A stretch of DNA of 64,000 bases, from assembly GCA_020632155.1 (NCBI GenBank), contig JACKGE010000001.1, positions 314,285 to 378,284 of the forward strand, given 5' to 3'. Made by a program: the position numbers and the translations under genes. The stretch comes from Candidatus Nomurabacteria bacterium. Its GTDB lineage: Bacteria > Patescibacteriota > Minisyncoccia > Phycocordibacterales > UBA918. The notes beneath the pieces were generated by a model that ran no database searches, was not told the origin of the DNA, and saw only the letters and a list, made by a program, of their open reading frames with translations. Shown here one piece after another: positions 1,003 to 55,572 of the stretch. How positions within the stretch are numbered: the first letter of the stretch is position 1; every line of letters starts with the position of its first letter.

Positions 1003-1058
1003 TACCCGTACACGCTATGAAATAGACCCTGTGTTGGTCACGGGGTATACTGTTATTC

Positions 1059-3083
1059 ATGAGAGGGGAGAAAGATCCAGAACGAATTGAGGCGCTTCGC
1101 GAGCGCCTATATTCGCGTTCCGTACCGCCGCGCAAGCGCAAAGAAGAACCACTCACTGACGAACCGGTGCCGGTAAATAAGGAGTGGAAAACGCCGCCAA
1201 ACAGTGATATCAGACAACGTCACCCTGAACCAGAAAAGGCTGAGACAGTGCCCGATATAGTACCGAGAGAAGAAACCCCTGCACCTACAGCTACAGTAGC
1301 TCATTCAACGCCATCAACCTCAGATCAAGCTCTCTCATCTATGACTTCACGTAAAAAACGGCAATCATATCGAGTTAAGGTGCTGCTGGCAGCGGTGTTC
1401 TTTTTTGTGGTAGCAGTTGGTCTCTCCAGCCTCTTTATTCTCTTTGGTGGCAATGCTATTTCCGGCGAGAACATAACACTTAGCCTCAATGGCCCCTTTA
1501 CCATCGGTGGTGGTGAGATCATCCCACTGCAAGTAGGTATCACCAATCAGAATAGCGTAGCTATCGAGGGCGCCACCCTTATCATTGATTACCCGAAGGG
1601 TACGATGTCTGCTACTGAGACTGGCAAAGAGCTTTTTGTTGAGCGTATGTCACTCGAATCAATTGGGTCAGGTGAGACGGTTAATATTCCGGTACGGGCA
1701 CAGGTCTTTGGCGAGGAAAACGAGGAGCTGACCGTTAAAGCGTCTATTGAGTACCGCGTGCGCGGCTCCAATGCTACCTTCTATAAAGAAGCTGAACCAC
1801 TACGCTTTAAAGTCAGCTCCTCACCGATCGTGGTAACCATCGATTCAGTGAAAGAGATATCTTCCGGCCAAGAGTTTGAAATGAAGTTAAACGTACGCTC
1901 TAATTCACCGACCACACTTTCAGACATTTTGGTTAAGGCCGAGTATCCAAACGGGTTTGATTTCACCAGTTCTTCGCCACAGCCGTCTTCAGGCCGTAAC
2001 GCGTGGCTTATTGAAGAGCTTGAACCAGAGGAGAGTAGTACCATCACTATCCGTGGATTGGTAGTTGGCAAAGATAGCGATCAACGTGTCATTAATTTTT
2101 CTATTGGTGTGCCAAACGAGCGCGATCGCTCTACATTGGCTTCTATTTTTGCTATCTCATCGGCTGAGTTCACTATCGAGCAACCGTTCATTGATGTGGC
2201 GCTTGATGTAGATGGCGATACGGGTAGTGCGGTGGCTATCGAACCGGGGAAGCGTTCGCAAGTTAGTATCAACGTTGAAAACACCTTGAGTGATGCTGTC
2301 TACGATGTGCAGGTAACAGCCAAACTCTCCGGAAACGCGCTTTCTGGAGCGGAGATACTTGCCTCAAACGGATACTACAACTCTAATGCTCAGACCATCA
2401 CGTGGGATGTTTCCAATATTCGTAATCTAGAACAGCTTGATCCGGGGGGTGAACAAAGGTTCTCGTTCTCTATTACTCCGAGCAGTAATGTACCAGCGAC
2501 GCCGCAGGTAGTGGTTGATGTAACGGTAAATGCTCGGCGCGTCTCTGAGAGCAATGCCTCAGAAGCGCTCATTGGTGCGGTCACTTCCGCTATCAGGGTA
2601 GAAAGTTCACCATCGCTCGTTTCAGCCACCACCTTCAACACCGGTTCGTTCTCTGATGTGGGCCCGATTCCGCCTGAGGTAGGACGTACAACCTCGTACA
2701 CCATTGCACTCCGACTTACCAACGGCACCAATGATATTACCGGCGGTGTTATGACCGCTGAGCTCCCATCGTATGTCACATGGCTCGATAATACTGCCGG
2801 CCGCGGCACCTTTAGCTTTAACGAAAGCACACGTACGCTGACGTGGGAAACAGGCTCTATGCAGGGAGGGGAGTCTATGTCTGGCAGCTTCCAAGTTTCA
2901 ATCTTGCCAAGCACGTCGCAAATTGGTACAACACCAACGCTGGTCGGTGAACAGCGCTTTAAGGCCGACGACCGCTTTACCGGCAGTCTCATTCGCACCA
3001 CCAGTGCCGGTATTACTACCAAGATGTCGGAAGAATTCGGCTTCGATAAAGGTAATGGTCTTGTTAAAGCATCAGGAAACTAA
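1059..3083 (+). CDS. Large membrane-anchored surface protein. Basic/Pro-rich cytoplasmic N-terminus, one TM, then a beta-rich extracellular region of repeated Ig-like/DUF11-like segments
   Basis: 674-aa ORF with a hydrophobic segment LLAAVFFFVVAVGLSSLFILFGG. Remainder is T/S/V/N-rich and repetitive. Confidence 0.5.
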   Translation: MRGEKDPERIEALRERLYSRSVPPRKRKEEPLTDEPVPVNKEWKTPPNSDIRQRHPEPEKAETVPDIVPREETPAPTATVAHSTPSTSDQALSSMTSRKKRQSYRVKVLLAAVFFFVVAVGLSSLFILFGGNAISGENITLSLNGPFTIGGGEIIPLQVGITNQNSVAIEGATLIIDYPKGTMSATETGKELFVERMSLESIGSGETVNIPVRAQVFGEENEELTVKASIEYRVRGSNATFYKEAEPLRFKVSSSPIVVTIDSVKEISSGQEFEMKLNVRSNSPTTLSDILVKAEYPNGFDFTSSSPQPSSGRNAWLIEELEPEESSTITIRGLVVGKDSDQRVINFSIGVPNERDRSTLASIFAISSAEFTIEQPFIDVALDVDGDTGSAVAIEPGKRSQVSINVENTLSDAVYDVQVTAKLSGNALSGAEILASNGYYNSNAQTITWDVSNIRNLEQLDPGGEQRFSFSITPSSNVPATPQVVVDVTVNARRVSESNASEALIGAVTSAIRVESSPSLVSATTFNTGSFSDVGPIPPEVGRTTSYTIALRLTNGTNDITGGVMTAELPSYVTWLDNTAGRGTFSFNESTRTLTWETGSMQGGESMSGSFQVSILPSTSQIGTTPTLVGEQRFKADDRFTGSLIRTTSAGITTKMSEEFGFDKGNGLVKASGN

Positions 3084-5328: not shown

Positions 5329-6771
5329 ATGTCTGAGCCAAAACCGCGTTATATAACCACCACCTTGCCCTATGTAAATGCTGACCCGCACGTTGGTTTT
5401 GCTCTGGAGGCAGTGCAAGCTGATGCCCTCGCACGTTACTGGCGGCTTATGGGCCACGAAGTCTTTTTCAACACTGGTACTGACGAGCATGGCCAGAAAA
5501 TTGCCCAGAAGGCTGACGAAGCAGGGAGGGATAGGCAAGAGTATGTAGATCACTATGCTGGGCAGTTTAATAAGCTCAAAGAAGCCCTCAACCTCTCTTA
5601 CGATCATTTTATTCGCACTACTGATGACGCCCACAAAGCAGCAGCGCAGGCTATCTGGCAGAAGTGTGCCGAGAACGGCGACATCTACAAAAAGAAATAC
5701 AAAGGCCTCTACTGTGTTGGCTGCGAGTTGTTTGTCCGCGAGAGCGACCTTGTTGATGGCAAGTGTCCGCACCACCCTAACCAAGAGCTGCAAGAGATCG
5801 AGGAAGAAAATTACTTCTTTGCACTTTCTAAGTACCAGTCGTACCTAGAGGAGTATCTCAGTGGCGATAGCGTTACGCCGGACTGGCAGCGAGCGTGGGC
5901 GCTAGAGTTTGTGAAAAAGGGTCTTGAGGACTTTAGTATCTCGCGCGAACGTGCTCGCCTCGATTGGGGTGTGCCGGTACCAAATGACGAGGATCAGGTC
6001 ATGTATGTGTGGTTTGATGCCCTTACTAACTACATCTCAACCCTCGGTTGGCCGGAGGATAGCGAGGGAACGTTTAAGAAGTTTTGGACTGACGGAGAGA
6101 CACTGCAGCTAGCCGGCAAAGACCAAGTACGTTTCCAGTCCATCATGTGGCAAGCAATGCTGAAAAGTGCCGGTGTGAAAGCCACTGACAAGGTCTTTTA
6201 CCATGGCTTTATCACGAGCGGTGGCCAGAAGATGAGCAAGAGCGTTGGTAACGTCATTTCACCGTACGAACTCGTGGAGCGTTATGGTACCGATGCGGCG
6301 CGGTACATTCTCCTGCGGCACGTGCATCCAACTGACGACTCGGACCTCACATGGGAAAAAATGGATGAGTGGTACACCGCCAACTTGGTTAATGGCCTTG
6401 GCAACCTCACCGCTCGTATCATGAAAATGGCTGAGACACACCTTGATAGTCCGATTGAAAAACCAGAGGTTGGTCAGTTCGATGAAGCGTATCTAAAAGC
6501 TCTTGATGAGTACGATTTCATGACTGCGTGTGATTTTGTCTGGAAGAAAGTAGGAGAGCTTGATGAGAAGATAACTGAGACCGAGCCATTCAAGTTGGTA
6601 AAAACTGATAAAGAAGCTGCGGTGAAAATAATCAAAGAGTTGGTTCACGATCTTTATATCGTTGGTCGCATGCTATTTCCACTGATGCCCAAGGCTAACG
6701 TAGCGATTAAAGAAGCCGTCCTCGCCAACAAAAAACCAGACAACCTCTTTAACCGTTTAGAAGATAAGTAG
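5329..6771 (+). CDS. metG: Methionyl-tRNA synthetase
   Basis: TTTLPYVNADPHVGFALEAVQADALARYWRLMGHEVFFNTGTDEHGQKI (HIGH-type motif) ...KMSKSVGN (KMSKS motif). Confidence 0.9.
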   Translation: MSEPKPRYITTTLPYVNADPHVGFALEAVQADALARYWRLMGHEVFFNTGTDEHGQKIAQKADEAGRDRQEYVDHYAGQFNKLKEALNLSYDHFIRTTDDAHKAAAQAIWQKCAENGDIYKKKYKGLYCVGCELFVRESDLVDGKCPHHPNQELQEIEEENYFFALSKYQSYLEEYLSGDSVTPDWQRAWALEFVKKGLEDFSISRERARLDWGVPVPNDEDQVMYVWFDALTNYISTLGWPEDSEGTFKKFWTDGETLQLAGKDQVRFQSIMWQAMLKSAGVKATDKVFYHGFITSGGQKMSKSVGNVISPYELVERYGTDAARYILLRHVHPTDDSDLTWEKMDEWYTANLVNGLGNLTARIMKMAETHLDSPIEKPEVGQFDEAYLKALDEYDFMTACDFVWKKVGELDEKITETEPFKLVKTDKEAAVKIIKELVHDLYIVGRMLFPLMPKANVAIKEAVLANKKPDNLFNRLEDK

Positions 6772-6798
6772 TTTATGTATCATATATGATACATAAAC
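6771..6798. repeat. 28-bp perfect palindrome GTTTATGTATCATATATGATACATAAAC (family B)
   Basis: Direct reading. Sits between the metG stop and the next gene. Core TATGTATCATATATGATACATA recurs at 48211-48234. Confidence 0.8.
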
Positions 6799-6809
6799 AG
6801 GATAAGTGT

Positions 6810-7379
6810 ATGAAAAACGCAATTATTGTTCATGGTATGCCAGGAAAAGAGGAATATTACTCACCTGAGTTTCCGTCAGCGAGTAATTTCCATTGGATAC
6901 CGTGGCTACAGAAACAATTGATAATTAAAGATATCAAAACTGATACACCAGAAATGCCGTATGCATATAGTCCTGACTACCCAATTTGGAAGACAGAATT
7001 TGAGCGTTTTGGTATCACTCCCGAAACGATACTAGTAGGACACAGTTGTGGAGGAGGGTTTATTGTCCGCTGGCTCTCTGAGAATAAAAACACACAGGTC
7101 GGAAAGGTAGTGCTCGTAGCTCCATGGATAGACCCAGAAGGTAAACTTGATACAGGTTTCTTTAACTTCAACATTGATCCGAATGTAGCTTCCAGAACCA
7201 GAGAACTCGTCATTTTTAATAGTAACGATGATGCACATGATATTCAAAAAAGTGTCAGTAAACTGAAATCAGTAATTAAAAATGTGAAGTACATTGAGTT
7301 TGATAAATACGGTCATTTTTGTCAGTCTGATTTAGGCACAGACGCCTTCCCTGAACTTCTCGAAGAAATTTTGAAATAA
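6810..7379 (+). CDS. Alpha/beta-hydrolase, RBBP9/YdeN-like serine hydrolase
   Basis: MKNAIIVHG...GHSCGG (GxSxG nucleophile elbow) ...D...H. Start moved to the ATG at 6810; the track start at 6786 lies inside the palindrome. Confidence 0.55.
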   Translation: MKNAIIVHGMPGKEEYYSPEFPSASNFHWIPWLQKQLIIKDIKTDTPEMPYAYSPDYPIWKTEFERFGITPETILVGHSCGGGFIVRWLSENKNTQVGKVVLVAPWIDPEGKLDTGFFNFNIDPNVASRTRELVIFNSNDDAHDIQKSVSKLKSVIKNVKYIEFDKYGHFCQSDLGTDAFPELLEEILK

Positions 7380-7382
7380 AGT

Positions 7383-8018
7383 ATGAATATTCTGGTTTTT
7401 GGCGATAGTATCACTCAAGGTTTCTATGACGTAGAGTGTGGCGGTTGGGTAAGTAGATTATCTACGTACGCTCAAGATAAAACCGTCCAGAATAATTGGG
7501 AAGGAGTAAATGGATATATTTTCAATCTGGGTATTTCGGGTGAGAGAACCACTGGCCTACGTAGTCGTTTTCTTGCAGAAGTACAAGCTCGGTACAAGAA
7601 CAATGAAGACACAACCGTTGTTGTAGCAATTGGCATAAATGATTCAATTCGTAATGAATTAACAAAGGAAAACTGGTGTCCATTCCTAGATTTTTCTCAA
7701 AACTATGACTGGCTTATTACTGAAGCCAAAAAATATGGTCAAGTTATAACCCTAGGCCTTACCCCGATTGACGAAAATATACTTCAGCCGATTCCTTGGT
7801 TCTCAGAATATTCCCATTACGAGACTGATCGTAGCAAATACGATACTGAGATCAAACGACTTTCAACGAATCATGGTGTTGTACATATTTCAATGAACGA
7901 TATTTTTAGTGACAAGTCCGGCCCGTTTCTTGTAGATGGGTTACATCCAAATAGTAATGGGCATCAATTAATTTTTCAGAGGATTAAAAGTGTTTTAGAA
8001 GAAATGAATATATTGTAA
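7383..8018 (+). CDS. SGNH/GDSL-family hydrolase
   Basis: N-terminal ILVFGDSITQG (GDS block), later GINDS and DGLHPN blocks. Confidence 0.7.
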   Translation: MNILVFGDSITQGFYDVECGGWVSRLSTYAQDKTVQNNWEGVNGYIFNLGISGERTTGLRSRFLAEVQARYKNNEDTTVVVAIGINDSIRNELTKENWCPFLDFSQNYDWLITEAKKYGQVITLGLTPIDENILQPIPWFSEYSHYETDRSKYDTEIKRLSTNHGVVHISMNDIFSDKSGPFLVDGLHPNSNGHQLIFQRIKSVLEEMNIL

Positions 8019-8020
8019 TT

Positions 8021-8266
8021 ATGCAAAGTGTTGAACAAATTCTAGAACGGAATGCTCGTGTAGAGGCCGACAAAGCATGGGAAACCAGTGGCACCCGCCG
8101 CGCTTGTATTGCGGCAGTCACGTATGGTATTGCTACACTTTTTATGTGGCGGATTGGCATCAGTGACCCATGGTTAAACGCTCTTGTCCCAACCGGTGGC
8201 TACGTACTCTCAACTCTCTCACTCCCGCTCATCAAACGTTGGTGGCTTAAGAAATACTATAAATAA
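8021..8266 (+). CDS. Small membrane protein, hypothetical
   Basis: 81-aa ORF with two hydrophobic segments. Immediately follows 7383-8018. Confidence 0.35.
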   Translation: MQSVEQILERNARVEADKAWETSGTRRACIAAVTYGIATLFMWRIGISDPWLNALVPTGGYVLSTLSLPLIKRWWLKKYYK

Positions 8267-8300
8267 ATCAGGATACAAGAACTGCTCCAATTAAAGACAA

Positions 8301-8356
8301 CACAGCGCCCTCTTTATATAGTACGGTTAACCGTACTATATAAAGAGGGCGCTGTG
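8301..8356. terminator. 56-bp perfect palindrome between convergent genes. Likely a bidirectional terminator hairpin whose core is family-A palindrome TATAGTACGGTTAACCGTACTATA
   Basis: CACAGCGCCCTCTTTATATAGTACGGTT|AACCGTACTATATAAAGAGGGCGCTGTG is self-complementary end to end. Lies between the stop of 8021-8266 (+) and the stop of 8372-8782 (-). Confidence 0.6.
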
Positions 8357-8371
8357 TTAAAAATGTTCTTG

Positions 8372-8782
8372 CTATTCAACTCGTTGTAATACAGACTTCC
8401 AGCGACCCCGTCCACGCGGAGGCATTCCTGCTTGTAATATTATTTCTAAAACTTCCCAAAACTTTCGATAGTCAGACTTGTTTTGTTTTAATATCGTTTC
8501 GATGTGTTTGTACCGACCACATTCATAATCTAAACGTATCTTCTCAGCGGTTGACGGACTGAGTTGTAGTAATTGCCATACGCGATAAGAGGAATTACCT
8601 TCAATGAACATTGTTATCGCAGCCAATCTTTTGATCAGCATTATTTTTTCTTCAGGCCCAAGCAAATCGTCAAAAAAATGCACTGCTGAGTTAACATTTA
8701 AGTCAGCCACCACTTTTCCAAATTGTTGGTATAGCTTATCAAATTCAGTCGCAGGGAGCTTTCTCTTCGAGACATTGGTCAT
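8372..8782 (-). CDS. TrpR/YerC/YecD-like helix-turn-helix DNA-binding protein
   Basis: ...EEKIMLIKRLAAITMFIEGNSSYRVWQLLQLSPSTAEKIR... resembles the TrpR-like (YerC) HTH. Flanked by family-A palindromes: 5 nt upstream of the start, and inside the downstream terminator. Confidence 0.5.
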   Translation of the reverse strand: MTNVSKRKLPATEFDKLYQQFGKVVADLNVNSAVHFFDDLLGPEEKIMLIKRLAAITMFIEGNSSYRVWQLLQLSPSTAEKIRLDYECGRYKHIETILKQNKSDYRKFWEVLEIILQAGMPPRGRGRWKSVLQRVE

Positions 8783-8786
8783 AAAT

Positions 8787-8812
8787 TTATAGTACGGTTA
8801 ACCGTACTATAA
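8787..8812. promoter_or_regulatory. 26-bp perfect palindrome TTATAGTACGGTTAACCGTACTATAA; candidate operator 5 nt upstream of the TrpR-like gene start
   Basis: Direct reading. Same core as 8301-8356 and 55391-55412. Confidence 0.5.
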
Positions 8813-9880: not shown

Positions 9881-9955
9881 TTAACATTACTCAAAGAAGG
9901 AGAGTAGAGATGCCTTACAGATTCGGTCACTTTACGGTGAATAAACAAGGTTTCC

Positions 9956-10444
9956 TTGTGTTTGAAGCGTTATTCGCCCTACGAGGAAGTAATTGTCCCA
10001 CATGACGTGTGTAAAAACGGCACTGCAGCGATTTCTGTTTATGTTCGCTCGCAGCTTCGTTCACGGCAAGACGCCCACAAAAAACACCAACGAGAGTACT
10101 TAGACCTACTGTCGTCAATCGACCACGGGGTCAGTACGCACTATGAGGGGGTAGTTCTGAAAGGCAGAATCACAAATAACGCGCATGAACGCGGCTTGTT
10201 TTCTGTTCATTTAGATTCTCCAACCATATATCAGTCTCGGTATGATGTCGTCGGTTCGTACTCTCGTGTGATGACAGGTCGTATTGAGTGGTGTTCAAAA
10301 GACACCTTCCTGTTAGCAGACTGGGTTATTGCTGAAGCAGAAAGGCACCTAGTCTCATTGTATAAAAGAGCGAAATTCAAACAGGCACACGCTCGAACCA
10401 TCGATCTAGCTACTGAACTAAACAAGACTGACGTGTATAGATAA
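9956..10444 (+). CDS. Hypothetical protein
   Basis: 162-aa ORF with no recognisable motifs. Followed by a strong hairpin terminator. Confidence 0.35.
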   Translation: MCLKRYSPYEEVIVPHDVCKNGTAAISVYVRSQLRSRQDAHKKHQREYLDLLSSIDHGVSTHYEGVVLKGRITNNAHERGLFSVHLDSPTIYQSRYDVVGSYSRVMTGRIEWCSKDTFLLADWVIAEAERHLVSLYKRAKFKQAHARTIDLATELNKTDVYR

Positions 10445-47148: not shown

Positions 47149-47205
47149 AAACAAAAGGCGCGAGGCCAATTGGCCTCACGCTTTTTGTTTGGTAGTATAC
47201 CGCCT

Positions 47206-47769
47206 ATGATAATTGGTTTAACAGGTTCGTTTGGAGCAGGGAAGGGAGTAGTTTCTGATTATTTGGTCGACACAAAAAAATTTGCACACTTCTCAGCTCG
47301 CACATTCATTATCGCAGAGATAGAACGACGTGGTTTGCCGATTGATAGAAACAGTATGATCGAGGTAGCAAATGATCTTCGTCACACCTACGGACCAACC
47401 TATATATTCGAACAACTGGTGGCCATGGCCAAAGAACATGGTGGTAACTGTGTGGTTGAGAGCATTCGAGCGGTTGCTGAAGCGCGGTACATGCAAGAGC
47501 AGGGAGGGGTCGTGCTTGGAGTAGATGCCCCGCCGGAGCTACGGTATGAACGTATCGTTAAACGAGGTAGTGAGACAGACCATGTGACTTTTGATGAGTG
47601 GCGCGCGCAGGAGGTGAGGGAGTCAAACCCAGATGACCCTACTAAGCAGGACATCTTTGGTGCCCTTAAAGAATCAGATGTCATTATTCAAAATGACGGT
47701 ACGGTTCCTGAGTTGCATACAAAGATAGAAGAATTTCTCGCACTGTACACGAACGACGCAGCAACGTAG
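47206..47769 (+). CDS. P-loop nucleotide/CoA kinase (dephospho-CoA kinase / dNMP kinase-like)
   Basis: MIIGLTGSFGAGKGVVSDYL (Walker A at the extreme N-terminus, as in CoaE). Start placed after the secF terminator. Confidence 0.45.
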   Translation: MIIGLTGSFGAGKGVVSDYLVDTKKFAHFSARTFIIAEIERRGLPIDRNSMIEVANDLRHTYGPTYIFEQLVAMAKEHGGNCVVESIRAVAEARYMQEQGGVVLGVDAPPELRYERIVKRGSETDHVTFDEWRAQEVRESNPDDPTKQDIFGALKESDVIIQNDGTVPELHTKIEEFLALYTNDAAT

Positions 47770-47820
47770 GCAAAAACAGATAACAAAAATAAGTCTTTGT
47801 ATCCTATAGGATACAAAGAC

Positions 47821-48210
47821 TTATTTTTGTTTCCACATTTCTTCTATCAATGAAAAAAGTAAAAAGTGAGTAGGGTATTTTTTCTTAAGATTTTCATACG
47901 AAAAAGGCGGGACAAATTTTGAGGCATGTTTTTTACTTACACGTTGGTTATTTTTTTGATAAGAAGAAACATATTCACTAAATTCATTTTCCAACCAACG
48001 ATTCATCTGAGCAAATGTGTTTGGGCTTACCTGAAGCCGGTCATTAATTTCAAAACGTGTTTTACCAGACAAAATCGCTTGAGCAATAAGTATACGTCGA
48101 CCAAGTGCGATTTTTTCGCGCTCAGTCAATAGTCGAACAATGGTTTCAACTTCATTGGCGGTTGCAATTTCGAAAGCTTGTAGGGCAAGCTCGTCAATGT
48201 CTTTTTTCAT
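47821..48210 (-). CDS. TrpR/YerC/YecD-like HTH DNA-binding protein (second paralog)
   Basis: ...LTEREKIALGRRILIAQAILSGKTRFEINDRLQVSPNTFAQMNRWL... Family-B palindrome abuts its start codon. Confidence 0.55.
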   Translation of the reverse strand: MKKDIDELALQAFEIATANEVETIVRLLTEREKIALGRRILIAQAILSGKTRFEINDRLQVSPNTFAQMNRWLENEFSEYVSSYQKNNQRVSKKHASKFVPPFSYENLKKKYPTHFLLFSLIEEMWKQK

Positions 48211-48234
48211 CTATGTATCATATATGATACATAG
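48211..48234. promoter_or_regulatory. 24-bp perfect palindrome CTATGTATCATATATGATACATAG (family B) directly abutting the start of the TrpR-like gene
   Basis: Direct reading. Same core as 6771-6798. Confidence 0.5.
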
Positions 48235-48263
48235 AGATATATAAAATAAGTGGAGGAGTTAAT

Positions 48264-50605: not shown

Positions 50606-51049
50606 ACTGGCCACTGTTCACGGGAGTGAAGAACGCGTTTTTAAAGCGCGTTTCGAGTTTGGGTAAGTTCCTACTCGCACTGTCGGAGGGAGCAGCGTTT
50701 TTCGACAATACTCATCTGCACACATCAGCCAACAATTTATTTTTGTCTGATGTGTGCTGGTGAGGGTCATGTGTTTCAAAAGATTAATTGGAGAAACAGA
50801 TGATTTGAATAGATCAAATCAATCGACCTTATGATTGATTTGAGTACCAAGTTGTAATCAATTTATTTTGGTTATGACGGTACGCATCAGCAAGACAATT
50901 GAAATTTGTTTTTTCTTTTGTCTTATCCTTTAGGAGGTTCATTGAAGAGCGCTAACAGAGTACAGCGCACCGGAATGATGCATCTGCATGATTTCGATAG
51001 TAGATGAACCCAGGTAAGAACTACTTTAAGTAGATCCAAACCTGTCTTA

Positions 51050-52503
<1,454 letters not shown>

Positions 52504-52631
52504 AATTGGACACGTCGTGGTTGCTCTGGTAACAGAGTGACAACTCGCGGCTAATTGGTCGGTCTTATGTGCCTCAATTGAGCATGTAAGAGGTAATGAT
52601 ACTTGAACCTTTAGCTAGTATTTGACTGTAG

Positions 52632-54228: not shown

Positions 54229-55572
54229 ATGGATTTCTCGGAACAGTTCAAAGGCAAGAAGATAACGGTTATGGGGCTCGGTCTTTTGGGTCGGGGTGTT
54301 GGTGACGCAGCGTATTTAGCCGAATGTGGCGCAGAAGTGACGGTTACCGACCTCAAATCTGAGGAACAACTTACCGATTCGGTCGAAAAACTTAAATTGT
54401 ACCCAAACGTACGTTTTGCGCTCAACGGACACAAAGAAGAAGATTTTGAAAACGTTGATATGGTACTTGTCGCTGCTGGGGTGCCGTTTGACTCTCCATA
54501 TTTAGCTCATGCCCATAAGGCCGGTGTGCCATTGAAGCAAAGTGCGGCACTCTTTGCTGAGTTATCTGGCATTCCTATTATTGGCGTTACCGGTACCCGC
54601 GGTAAAAGTACGGTCACTGCTATGGTCCATCATGTTCTGTCGGTCACTACCGGTGAACACATCATTAAGGGCGGTAATGTGCGTGGTGTCTCTAATTTAC
54701 AGTTGCTCAAAGAAGTGAAAGAAGACTCGTTAGCGGTACTGGAGCTTGATTCATGGCAATTGCAAGGTTTTGGGTGGGCTGGTATTTCACCGCAGATCGT
54801 GGTCTTCACCAATTTCATGCCCGATCACATGAATTACTATAAGAATGATATGGACGCATACTTTACGGATAAAGCAAACATCTTTTTACACCAAAAAGAG
54901 AGTGGCGTGTTCATCACGGTGCCGGAGGTATTTGAACGAGCAAAAAAAATGGCAGGCACACTTGGTCAGGAGGTGGTGTTGGTGGATGATTCAACCTTGC
55001 CAGAGGACGTACTGCTTTCAATGCCAGGTGAGCACAATCGCCTCAATGCCGCTCTAGCGGTGGCGGCCCTTCGCGCTGTTAGCCTCACGGATGAGGAAAT
55101 ATTTACTGGTCTTGCCAGTTTCTCTGGCGTTGAAGGTCGCTTGCAACTGCTCACAACCGTCGACAATGTTCGTATCTACAACGACAACAATGCCACTACA
55201 CCGCAGGCCACCGTAGCGGCTCTTGAAGCCCTTGATGTTGGCAACAAAAACATTGTGCTTATTGCGGGCGGCGCTGATAAAGGCCTTGAACTACTGCAGT
55301 TAACTGCGGCAATCAGGGAGCACTGTAAGCAAACAATACTTATCCCGGGTACCGGTACAGAGAGATTGCTCGCAGCTCTAGAGGGGGGAAATAGTACGGT
55401 TAACCGTACTATAGCAGTAGAAGATTTGCAGCAGGCAGTAGAAGAGGCGCGGCTGGCAGCCAAAAATGGCGATATTATCCTCTTTAGCCCAGCCTTCTCA
55501 TCATTCAGTCAGTACAATAATGAATATGAGCGTAATGATGAATTTGTTGAGTTAGTGAAAAAATATGAGTAA
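54229..55572 (+). CDS. murD: UDP-N-acetylmuramoyl-L-alanine--D-glutamate ligase
   Basis: MDFSEQFKGKKITVMGLGLLGRGVGDAAYLAECGAEVTVTD...IIGVTGTRGKSTVTAM... Start trimmed: the track ORF's first 127 codons read through tRNA fragments and repeats. Family-A palindrome embedded in-frame at 55391-55412. Confidence 0.85.
   Translation: MDFSEQFKGKKITVMGLGLLGRGVGDAAYLAECGAEVTVTDLKSEEQLTDSVEKLKLYPNVRFALNGHKEEDFENVDMVLVAAGVPFDSPYLAHAHKAGVPLKQSAALFAELSGIPIIGVTGTRGKSTVTAMVHHVLSVTTGEHIIKGGNVRGVSNLQLLKEVKEDSLAVLELDSWQLQGFGWAGISPQIVVFTNFMPDHMNYYKNDMDAYFTDKANIFLHQKESGVFITVPEVFERAKKMAGTLGQEVVLVDDSTLPEDVLLSMPGEHNRLNAALAVAALRAVSLTDEEIFTGLASFSGVEGRLQLLTTVDNVRIYNDNNATTPQATVAALEALDVGNKNIVLIAGGADKGLELLQLTAAIREHCKQTILIPGTGTERLLAALEGGNSTVNRTIAVEDLQQAVEEARLAAKNGDIILFSPAFSSFSQYNNEYERNDEFVELVKKYE

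Follow-up and report, generated by a model that had tools for sequence, protein, structure and literature searches.

We analyzed a 64,000-nucleotide (nt) stretch of DNA from a Candidatus Nomurabacteria bacterium (contig JACKGE010000001.1 of assembly GCA_020632155.1, positions 314,285 to 378,284; hereafter the window). It carries a gene for a 129-amino-acid (129-aa) helix-turn-helix (HTH) protein and a set of related palindromes, called family B, two of which had been pointed out in an initial annotation. Our results suggest that the 129-aa protein is a dimeric TrpR/HisR-like autorepressor. Its operator would lie over the -10 box of a leaderless promoter, an auxiliary operator would be built into the terminator of the same gene, and the palindrome found at position 6771, far from the gene, would be a duplicated operator. 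We put the probability of this reading, which was drawn from sequence comparisons and structure prediction, at roughly 0.6. The family-B elements and the gene are listed below, with scores obtained from a position weight matrix (PWM).

6771..6798, no strand: remote family-B copy, a 28-bp perfect palindrome (palindrome scan; PWM 25.6 bits)
48210..48235, no strand: start-site 26-bp perfect palindrome, the proposed autoregulatory operator (PWM 32.7 bits, best in the window)
47796..47817, no strand: diverged operator copy TTTGTATCCTATAGGATACAAA (exact GTATC-N6-GATAC; PWM 9.0 bits, rank 3)
47782..47831, no strand: 50-bp perfect palindrome composed of A-tract, stem and T-tract, a predicted bidirectional intrinsic terminator (palindrome and terminator scans)
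47821..48210, minus strand: 129-aa TrpR/HisR-like HTH gene (profile and fold matches)

The palindrome scan bore out the 28-bp perfect palindrome (GTTTATGTATCATA/TATGATACATAAAC) which the initial annotation had placed in the spacer between metG and a hydrolase gene. The flanking genes were also as named there (metG at 5329-6771, hydrolase ATG at 6810, SGNH hydrolase at 7383-8018). The second palindrome had been given as 24 bp long, at 48211-48234, abutting the start codon of the regulator. It is real and perfect, but it extends over 26 bp (TCTATGTATCATA/TATGATACATAGA; in full TCTATGTATCATATATGATACATAGA) and shares one base with the start codon of the 129-aa gene, namely the A of the ATG, on which it ends. 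Both palindromes had been said to share a core, and indeed the 22-mer TATGTATCATATATGATACATA is identical at 6774-6795 and 48212-48233. There were 2 exact occurrences of this 22-mer in the 64 kb, compared with 0 expected and 0 matches in 100 shuffles, and no further match was detected in the window when up to 3 mismatches were allowed. The shorter core GTATC-N6-GATAC is exact at 6777, 47799 and 48215 only. The site at 47799 belongs to a third, diverged copy, located at the tip of a hairpin just 3' of the stop codon of the 129-aa gene, which the initial annotation did not include. The PWM, trained on orthologous sites and run over the window, identified these three sites only, and the next best score was -2.1 bits. 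Weak matches to GTATC-N6-GATAC in the hydrolase operon (6931, 7012, 7831) seemed clustered; we dropped them, as the PWM scored nothing there. No Rfam match was obtained for the palindromes.

Further, we compared the palindromes with the proteins encoded beside them. We retrieved 16 homologue loci by protein similarity alone and added the paralogous gene of the window, which represents a second family (family A), together with two family-A orthologue loci (L145, L147). The family-A elements of the window were as follows.

8372..8782, minus strand: paralogous 136-aa TrpR-like gene, family A
8787-8812: family-A palindrome at the start of this gene
8299-8358: family-A 60-bp terminator palindrome
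55391-55412: third family-A copy, within a coding region

We observed that 16 of the 16 protein-ascertained loci and the 3 family-A loci had a palindrome of their own at both ends of the gene, upstream of the start and after the stop. The initial annotation had described one palindrome per regulator, at its start. The start copies are present as described, but the description was incomplete, as a second copy lies in the terminator after each stop. At the 12 distinct close-orthologue loci (proteins 45-66% identical) the upstream 26-mer reads TCTATGTATCAT[G/A]TATGATACATAGA. In 10 of these 12 its last base is the A of the ATG, in L035 and L039 it lies 1-2 nt closer, and the sequence farther upstream is unconserved.

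The palindrome changed together with the recognition-helix region of the protein. Proteins with VSPNTF[AT]Q in this region were found with the half-site ATGTATCA, while paralogues with SPNTFSR, SPNTFRN or SPNTFTT were found with ATCTATCC, ACCTATCA, ATCTATCA and ATTATCA (that is, A[TC]CTATC[AC] or ATTATCA), and VGL[DTS]TV proteins with unrelated palindromes. Within family A, SPSTA of the window protein corresponds to TAGTACGGTTAACCGTACTA, and SPSTV/SQSTV of L145 and L147 to CTCCAATCGATTGGAG, which is unrelated to the family-A palindrome of the window and stands at both gene ends of these syntenic orthologues. Two paralogues with separate palindromes were present in single genomes, namely families A and B in the window, and L013 and L020 in one metagenome-assembled genome (MAG). 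The half-site sequence was kept over phylum-level distances and the loop was variable. Direct recognition of the palindromes by the adjacent proteins is by far the simplest reading, because a third-party factor would need to co-vary with every palindrome. The two regulator/operator pairs proposed in the initial annotation are thus supported by the shift of the palindrome with the recognition-helix region in all loci, with the palindromes as putative operators.

We also considered that some other factor binds the palindromes, or that they are purely structural bidirectional terminators, so that the TrpR-like genes would be adjacent by chance and the copy at 6771 would be unlinked to the protein. 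The post-stop copies and many remote copies do have the formal properties of intrinsic terminators. However, the other factor would have to co-vary with each paralogue over approximately 20 loci and at least 8 distinct palindromes, and, within one genome, to tell the two families of palindromes apart. A terminator would serve no purpose at the position of the start-site copy, which reaches the ATG and is not followed by a T-tract. The copy at 6771 is likewise without a T-tract on the coding strand, and the sequence is conserved beyond what pairing requires. We therefore regard this explanation as very unlikely.

In family A, the 24-mer TATAGTACGGTTAACCGTACTATA was found 4 nt before the start of the 136-aa gene and again at the tip of the 60-bp post-stop terminator palindrome. 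The third family-A copy, at 55391-55412, is located inside a coding region, approximately 170 nt before the next gene. The family-A core GTAC..GTTAAC..GTAC is similar to the motif given for the E. coli trp operator in PMC9413887.

The start-site palindrome of the 129-aa gene contains a sequence resembling a promoter. The elements concerned were the following.

48217..48222, minus strand: -10-like TATGAT in the start-site palindrome, 6 nt before the ATG
48240-48245: weak -35-like TTTATA, upstream of the regulator start

The TATGAT hexamer belongs to the half of the 26-bp palindrome nearest the start, at a distance of exactly 6 nt from the ATG, and in the orthologues L011, L013 and L015 it reads TATAAT. 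In L011 and L013 the G-to-A change was found in the start-proximal half only, where it breaks the palindrome, and the change was never seen at any post-stop copy. Since it is confined to the start-site palindrome, we consider that it probably reflects selection for -10 function. The family-A 136-aa gene likewise has TACTAT 6 nt before its ATG. We detected a Shine-Dalgarno (SD)-like 4-mer upstream of 11 of the 63 window genes, and approximately 15 of the 52 genes without an SD-like motif have TAnnnT 5-8 nt before the start. Leaderless starts are therefore plausibly common in this genome, as SD motifs are few and TAnnnT is frequent near starts, which suggests that leaderless transcription may be widespread in this organism. 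The regulator mRNA would be one of the leaderless transcripts, starting on the A of the ATG.

The post-stop copy is part of the 50-bp palindrome at 47782-47831, which overlaps the stop codon of the regulator and separates it from a convergent AAA_18 kinase gene (47170-47769). The terminator scan detected 20 pairs and a T-tail here, with flanking A- and T-tracts, and classified the element as an intrinsic terminator in both directions. The same classification was obtained for most post-stop copies of the orthologues. In all 16 protein-ascertained loci, as well as in family A, the post-stop copy was located 1-30 nt beyond the stop codon. The half-sites ATGTATCA/TGATACAT of the orthologous post-stop copies are conserved to the base, and no compensatory changes were observed within the 8-nt half-sites. 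Variation was found in the central 4 nt, which often break the palindrome (CGAA, CAAA, TACA), and the outer stems differ in sequence yet stay complementary, with A- and T-tracts at their sides. Conserved half-sites, a free centre and a co-varying stem together argue for a protein site overlaid on a terminator hairpin. The start-site and post-stop copies are 415-447 bp apart, centre to centre, across loci (approximately 416 bp in the window), with no fixed helical phase, and this spacing neither favours nor excludes looping. In L012 a remote/post-stop pair (8699-8720 and 10413-10434) is identical over 38 nt, and in L015 the copies at 9940-9961 and 10394-10415 are identical over 26 nt. Such identity within a genome, with loop and outer stem included, implies that the terminator module as a whole was recently duplicated or underwent gene conversion.

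All copies can fold as stable hairpins (-16.3 kcal/mol at 6771), and hence we asked how well the data would fit a protein that acts on RNA. Such a protein would bind the transcribed hairpins, the 5' one masking the AUG and the 3' one forming the terminator, and would control translation or termination. In agreement with this explanation, the A of the AUG would be hidden in the start-site hairpin of any transcript initiated upstream. On the other hand, the TrpR-type fold is an HTH that binds double-stranded DNA, and the stem sequence itself is conserved, with no compensatory changes in the half-sites. The G-to-A change of L011 and L013, which gives TATAAT, breaks the hairpin and improves the -10 box, and no conserved promoter was found upstream of the palindrome. 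We consider an RNA-acting protein very improbable.

We further characterized the 129-aa protein and its family. The gene at 47821-48210 on the minus strand is a real gene, whose start codon reads CAT at 48208-48210 on the plus strand. A profile built from 27 homologues matched YerC/HisR-type structures in PDB (3KOR, E = 9e-5; 3FRW, E = 3e-4). The AlphaFold2 model of the protein had a mean predicted local distance difference test (pLDDT) score of 85.8. When this model was used in Foldseek, the top 39 PDB matches were all of the TrpR/HisR type (probability 0.82-0.99, target-normalised TM-score 0.44-0.60), with weak E-values (0.16-1.3). The profile and fold matches taken together also include 3G1C and E. 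coli TrpR. The two window paralogues (129 aa and 136 aa) are homologous across the HTH core (hhalign 89%, E = 2e-6). An additional module, made up of residues 100-128, has no counterpart in TrpR/HisR structures. This C-terminal two-helix module (PFSYExLKxxYPxHFLLFSL) is highly conserved and confidently predicted, and it is located behind a poorly predicted linker.

The sole Pfam signal in the 129-aa protein was a sub-threshold Trp_repressor HTH (PF01371), and the protein has no catalytic, transposase or HUH/Y1 domain. The 136-aa paralogue also scored below the PF01371 threshold (16.9 bits), the NCBIfam TrpR model gave 14 bits against a cut-off of 67, and about a third of the homologues had a precomputed PF01371 match. 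The initial annotation had called the gene a TrpR/YerC-like paralog. This holds as distant kinship (3KOR/3FRW, Foldseek, hhalign), but not at the level of PF01371, whose cut-off is not reached. By these comparisons the protein is a distant relative of the Trp_repressor family and no clear member of it. A search at E<=1e-3 against a library with clusters at 50% identity gave 898 representatives of the family, and the loci recovered with family members were all from MAGs of Patescibacteria, also known as the Candidate Phyla Radiation (CPR). Neither window paralogue matched PHROG (phage) or PADLOC (defence-system) profiles, and a phage or defence-system origin of both proteins was rejected on these grounds. 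In the Trp_repressor family, Trp or His serves as a co-repressor for DNA binding. There were no his or trp genes near the gene or its sites, the neighbours being metG, hydrolases, a DM13 protein, a kinase and SecDF. The regulator gene was found in conserved synteny (AA_kinase, DUF805, DM13, regulator, AAA_18 kinase), and therefore it is not itself mobile.

We propose the following mechanism for the gene itself. The cognate site of the 129-aa dimer would be ATGTATCA-N4-TGATACAT. With a dimer on the 26-bp palindrome, both the -10 box and the start point would be covered, so that RNA polymerase would be occluded and the gene would repress itself. The copy at the terminator tip, approximately 416 bp away, could be an auxiliary operator which acts by cooperative binding or looping, or it could be a roadblock to convergent transcription from the AAA_18 kinase gene; as RNA, the same copy would also form the terminator hairpin. 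Two conserved features of this arrangement appear unusual, namely a putative operator that reaches the ATG of a gene which appears to be leaderless, and a putative second operator within the gene's own terminator.

The remote copy was analyzed in its genomic context. The elements that accompany it were the following.

6763..6769, plus strand: GATAAGT direct repeat, left copy
6801..6807, plus strand: GATAAGT direct repeat, right copy
6785..6790, plus strand: -10-like TATGAT within the remote palindrome, a candidate read from the sequence

The first base of the palindrome at 6771-6798 is the final G of the metG stop codon (TAG, 6769-6771), and its end lies 11 nt before the hydrolase ATG at 6810. 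The genes downstream encode a PF06821 serine hydrolase (6810-7379) and the SGNH hydrolase (7383-8018). In relatives that share this gene order (GlyRS, metG, hydrolase(s), ..., family-A regulator, TatD; L145 and L147-L150), only 1-4 nt separate the metG stop from the next ATG, and there is no palindrome. Therefore the 38-nt spacer of the window, 28 nt of which are palindrome, is a lineage-specific insertion of approximately 36 nt. We checked five same-species assemblies and the 38-nt spacer was kept in 5 of 5, so that a strain polymorphism was rejected. The 7-nt direct repeat GATAAGT brackets the palindrome and is possibly a target-site duplication. Among the matches listed in the site survey described below, the distribution of flanking direct repeats across 136 sites was equal to that of a displaced-flank control, which gave no sign of target-site duplications as a general feature of the sites.

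Between the copy at 6771 and the start-site operator 22 nt are identical, and these comprise the otherwise unconstrained centre. This shared centre, as in L012 and L015, points to duplication rather than convergence. Since these 22 bp equal the regulator's own start-site palindrome, binding of the 129-aa protein at 6771 is plausible. As RNA the site forms a hairpin (-16.3 kcal/mol, z = -2.9) without a T-tract on the plus (coding) strand. The terminator scan flagged it on the minus strand only, where there is no gene to terminate, and it was not counted as an intrinsic terminator. A consensus promoter scan at 6771 gave weak matches only, no more than in shuffles. If the TATGAT at 6785-6790 were used, transcription would start near 6797 and leave a 13-nt leader with AGGA (6799-6802) before the ATG at 6810.

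The proposed mechanism would treat the copy at 6771 as a recent lineage-specific duplicate of the operator, inserted at the once-tight junction of metG and the hydrolase gene, where it would supply a binding site. The site might act as a roadblock in the metG-hydrolase transcript, or it might provide the hydrolase and SGNH genes with a regulated internal promoter that has a -10 box only. No hydrolase or metG homologue was found beside any other sampled site. The initial annotation had presented 6771 as a remote site controlling the hydrolase/SGNH-hydrolase operon, and this was not supported as stated, given that the insertion is lineage-specific and no hydrolase is next to the other sites.

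The PF06821 hydrolase encoded at 6810-7379 is unusually conserved, with 3170 homologues at 60-72% identity. The source labels of these matches include Kaiserbacteria, Kuenenbacteria, Roizmanbacteria, Pacebacteria and Saccharimonadales. The hydrolase was at or near the metG 3' end in five related loci examined.

Further, we scanned metagenome contigs for TATGTATCA-N4-TGATACATA and obtained at least 120 stretches. The site set consisted of these stretches, the protein-ascertained loci and the window; it includes unrelated organisms and crude gene models, and the figures describe a sample limited to the matches listed. We observed that 123 of 137 distinct sites were intergenic, compared with 76% genic positions in the same loci (P ~1e-59). 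Most sites were not adjacent to a regulator gene. For 62 remote sites both neighbours were defined, and there were 14 convergent, 40 co-directional and 8 divergent gene pairs, which equals the background mix. We clustered the 252 proteins neighbouring the 137 sites, and the recurrent ones were the regulator, AAA_18 kinase, AA_kinase, DUF805, DM13 and one low-GC group. The low-GC group came from unrelated organisms, in which the motif had different flanks.

A 962-kb metagenome contig, Ga0156292_11, contained at least 4 sites. On this contig the family-B palindrome is held within a repeat of approximately 110 nt, present in at least 3 copies, of the form CTAATTAAAAAGACT...TTCTATGTATCA-N4-TGATACATAGAATTATGTATAAATAGTTGCAGAAAAGCGAA...AAATTAATTAGCA. 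The repeat recurs in another sample and had no Rfam match. Possible identities are a miniature mobile element, a promoter cassette and a gene for a small RNA. The copies were found at the following places.

L032, approximately 8225-8335: copy of the ~110-nt repeat
L102, approximately 6585-6695: copy of the ~110-nt repeat
L071, approximately 1010-1120, reverse strand: copy of the ~110-nt repeat
L122/L067: copy of the ~110-nt repeat, also present here

These data bear on another explanation, in which the palindromes are dispersed hairpin modules resembling repetitive extragenic palindromes (REP), with a terminator or mRNA-stabilising role. The TrpR-like protein would then be the binder of the element, acting in its spread, its protection or the control of termination, and 6771 would be a new insertion. 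This explanation is consistent with the insertion of approximately 36 nt into a junction of 1-4 nt, bracketed by GATAAGT, and with the ~110-nt palindrome-bearing repeat in at least 3 copies on the 962-kb contig. Copies in the same genome share the free centre and even the outer stem (38 nt in L012, 26 nt in L015, 22 nt in the window), remote sites track the background spacer mix, and many have variable long stems with A/T tracts. Nevertheless, the copy number is low, with 1 remote site in the 64-kb window and at least 4 on the 962-kb contig, and this is more like a regulon. The protein is without a catalytic or transposase domain and without a PHROG or PADLOC match, its gene is in conserved synteny, flanking repeats are no commoner than in the displaced-flank control over 136 sites, and the insertion is fixed in 5 of 5 same-species assemblies. 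Moreover, half-sites are conserved and the loop is variable, as recognition by a protein predicts, unlike a mere hairpin. On balance we find the REP-like explanation rather unlikely.

Several results weigh against our preferred reading, that of an autorepressor with a duplicated remote operator. The site at 6771 was absent from all relatives examined. No conserved -35 element was found upstream of the start-site palindrome across the orthologues, and the promoter was called from the -10 box alone. The post-stop copy of the window itself is degenerate, with two changes per half-site and 9 bits. The 129-aa protein scored 21.5 bits with PF01371, under the 27-bit cut-off. In the heterogeneous sample of 62 remote sites there was no enrichment at promoter-bearing spacers, and 14 of them were between convergent genes. 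A motif census was the check that the initial annotation had set, and it did not reveal the promoter enrichment in this metagenome sample. The outer stems of many sites are long, vary in sequence and bear A/T tracts, which indicates a hairpin or terminator role as much as that of an operator. A conserved regulon was rejected, as no conserved target gene family adjoined the remote sites among the matches listed.

A bolder possibility is that the palindrome is a self-contained, portable unit in which -10-only promoter, operator and hairpin terminator are united. It would be copied to new intergenic junctions, such as that of metG and the hydrolase gene, and would thereby change the targets of a Patescibacteria-specific TrpR-like protein. 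The protein, with its conserved site in terminator tips, would then modulate termination, read-through, or convergent and antisense transcription genome-wide, and not at promoters alone. We hold this to be rather improbable.

Two further observations were made in the window. The 42-bp perfect palindrome TGTACTTTAAAGGCCAGAGCAT/ATGCTCTGGCCTTTAAAGTACA lies beside an imperfect one of 46 bp at 19879-19955, just after the open reading frame (ORF) 19066-19884, and is unrelated to families A and B. The rRNA genes are unlinked, as the 23S (32291-35961) and 5S (36054-36164) genes are approximately 15 kb from the 16S gene (51047-52506). The 23S gene spans 3671 nt compared with 2925 nt in the model, which leaves approximately 750 nt of insertions, and there are small ORFs at 33894-34485 on the minus strand. 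Split rRNA genes and 23S insertions are typical of CPR, and the organism of the window agrees with this group in both respects; the insertion may be an intron or encode a homing endonuclease.

Patescibacteria have tiny genomes with few recognisable regulators, and our literature search turned up no account of their regulatory code. In this sizeable family of small HTH proteins, each gene displays the candidate cognate operator of its protein at both of its ends. This yields a table of orthogonal candidate repressor/operator pairs and provides motif discovery with an internal control. Predictions follow as well on leaderless promoters and on operators that would double as terminators, in organisms where genetics is just beginning. 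The insertion between metG and the hydrolase gene is a concrete case of a candidate binding site added at an operon junction, and if the regulator acts there, it would show how regulons grow in reduced genomes.

We compared the arrangement with known systems. TrpR represses its own gene. Like TrpR and HisR, the window protein is predicted to be a small, all-helical, dimeric HTH protein that would use (near-)perfect palindromes of approximately 20 bp, with an operator at its own gene, as is frequent among these regulators; here palindromes of 22-26 bp were found at the start of every homologue examined. TrpR-family proteins, including YerC, which is HisR, bind palindromes of approximately 20 bp with a lineage-specific consensus, and about half of hisR genes have a candidate autoregulatory site (PMC9413887). 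The HisR motif, cacTTTA-N6-TAAAgtg, is found upstream of genes for his biosynthesis and transport (PMC9413887). Full-text searches for earlier descriptions turned up this work on HisR/YerC only (PMC9413887). For TrpR/HisR, we found described neither an operator on the ATG of a leaderless gene nor a second copy built into a terminator. The window protein differs from TrpR/HisR in being approximately 30 aa longer, with the C-terminal two-helix module, and its motif ATGTATCA-N4-TGATACAT fits neither the HisR nor the TrpR motif.

The lac operators O1 and O2 are 401 bp apart. As in that system, the main operator would be located at the promoter and a second copy approximately 400 bp downstream (here 415-447 bp). 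In contrast to lac, the second site lies beyond the stop codon, in a terminator hairpin, and without consistent helical phasing. Looping, and the tetramer that it would require, are putative here. REP/RAYT systems encode an HUH (Y1) transposase and have tens to hundreds of copies per genome. The likeness to REP/REPIN-RAYT includes a gene flanked by cognate palindromes, one palindrome family per paralogue, extra intergenic copies, often right after stop codons, and the sign of a new insertion. The differences are that here the protein has no HUH/Y1 domain, there are 3 sites in 64 kb, synteny is conserved and flanking repeats do not appear to be general. In Tus/TerB and RTP/Ter, the site adjacent to the gene serves autoregulation and further sites are scattered, the Ter sites being asymmetric and polar. 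These systems are similar in that a small DNA-binding protein is encoded beside one of a few dispersed cognate sites, through which its gene is presumably controlled, and they differ in that nothing ties the present sites to a replication terminus, the fold is another one and the palindromes are perfect.

In summary, the 129-aa protein and its palindromes most likely work in the manner of TrpR/HisR autoregulation, with the protein as a distant and extended relative. The system would then be of a familiar repressor/operator kind rather than a new type of element.

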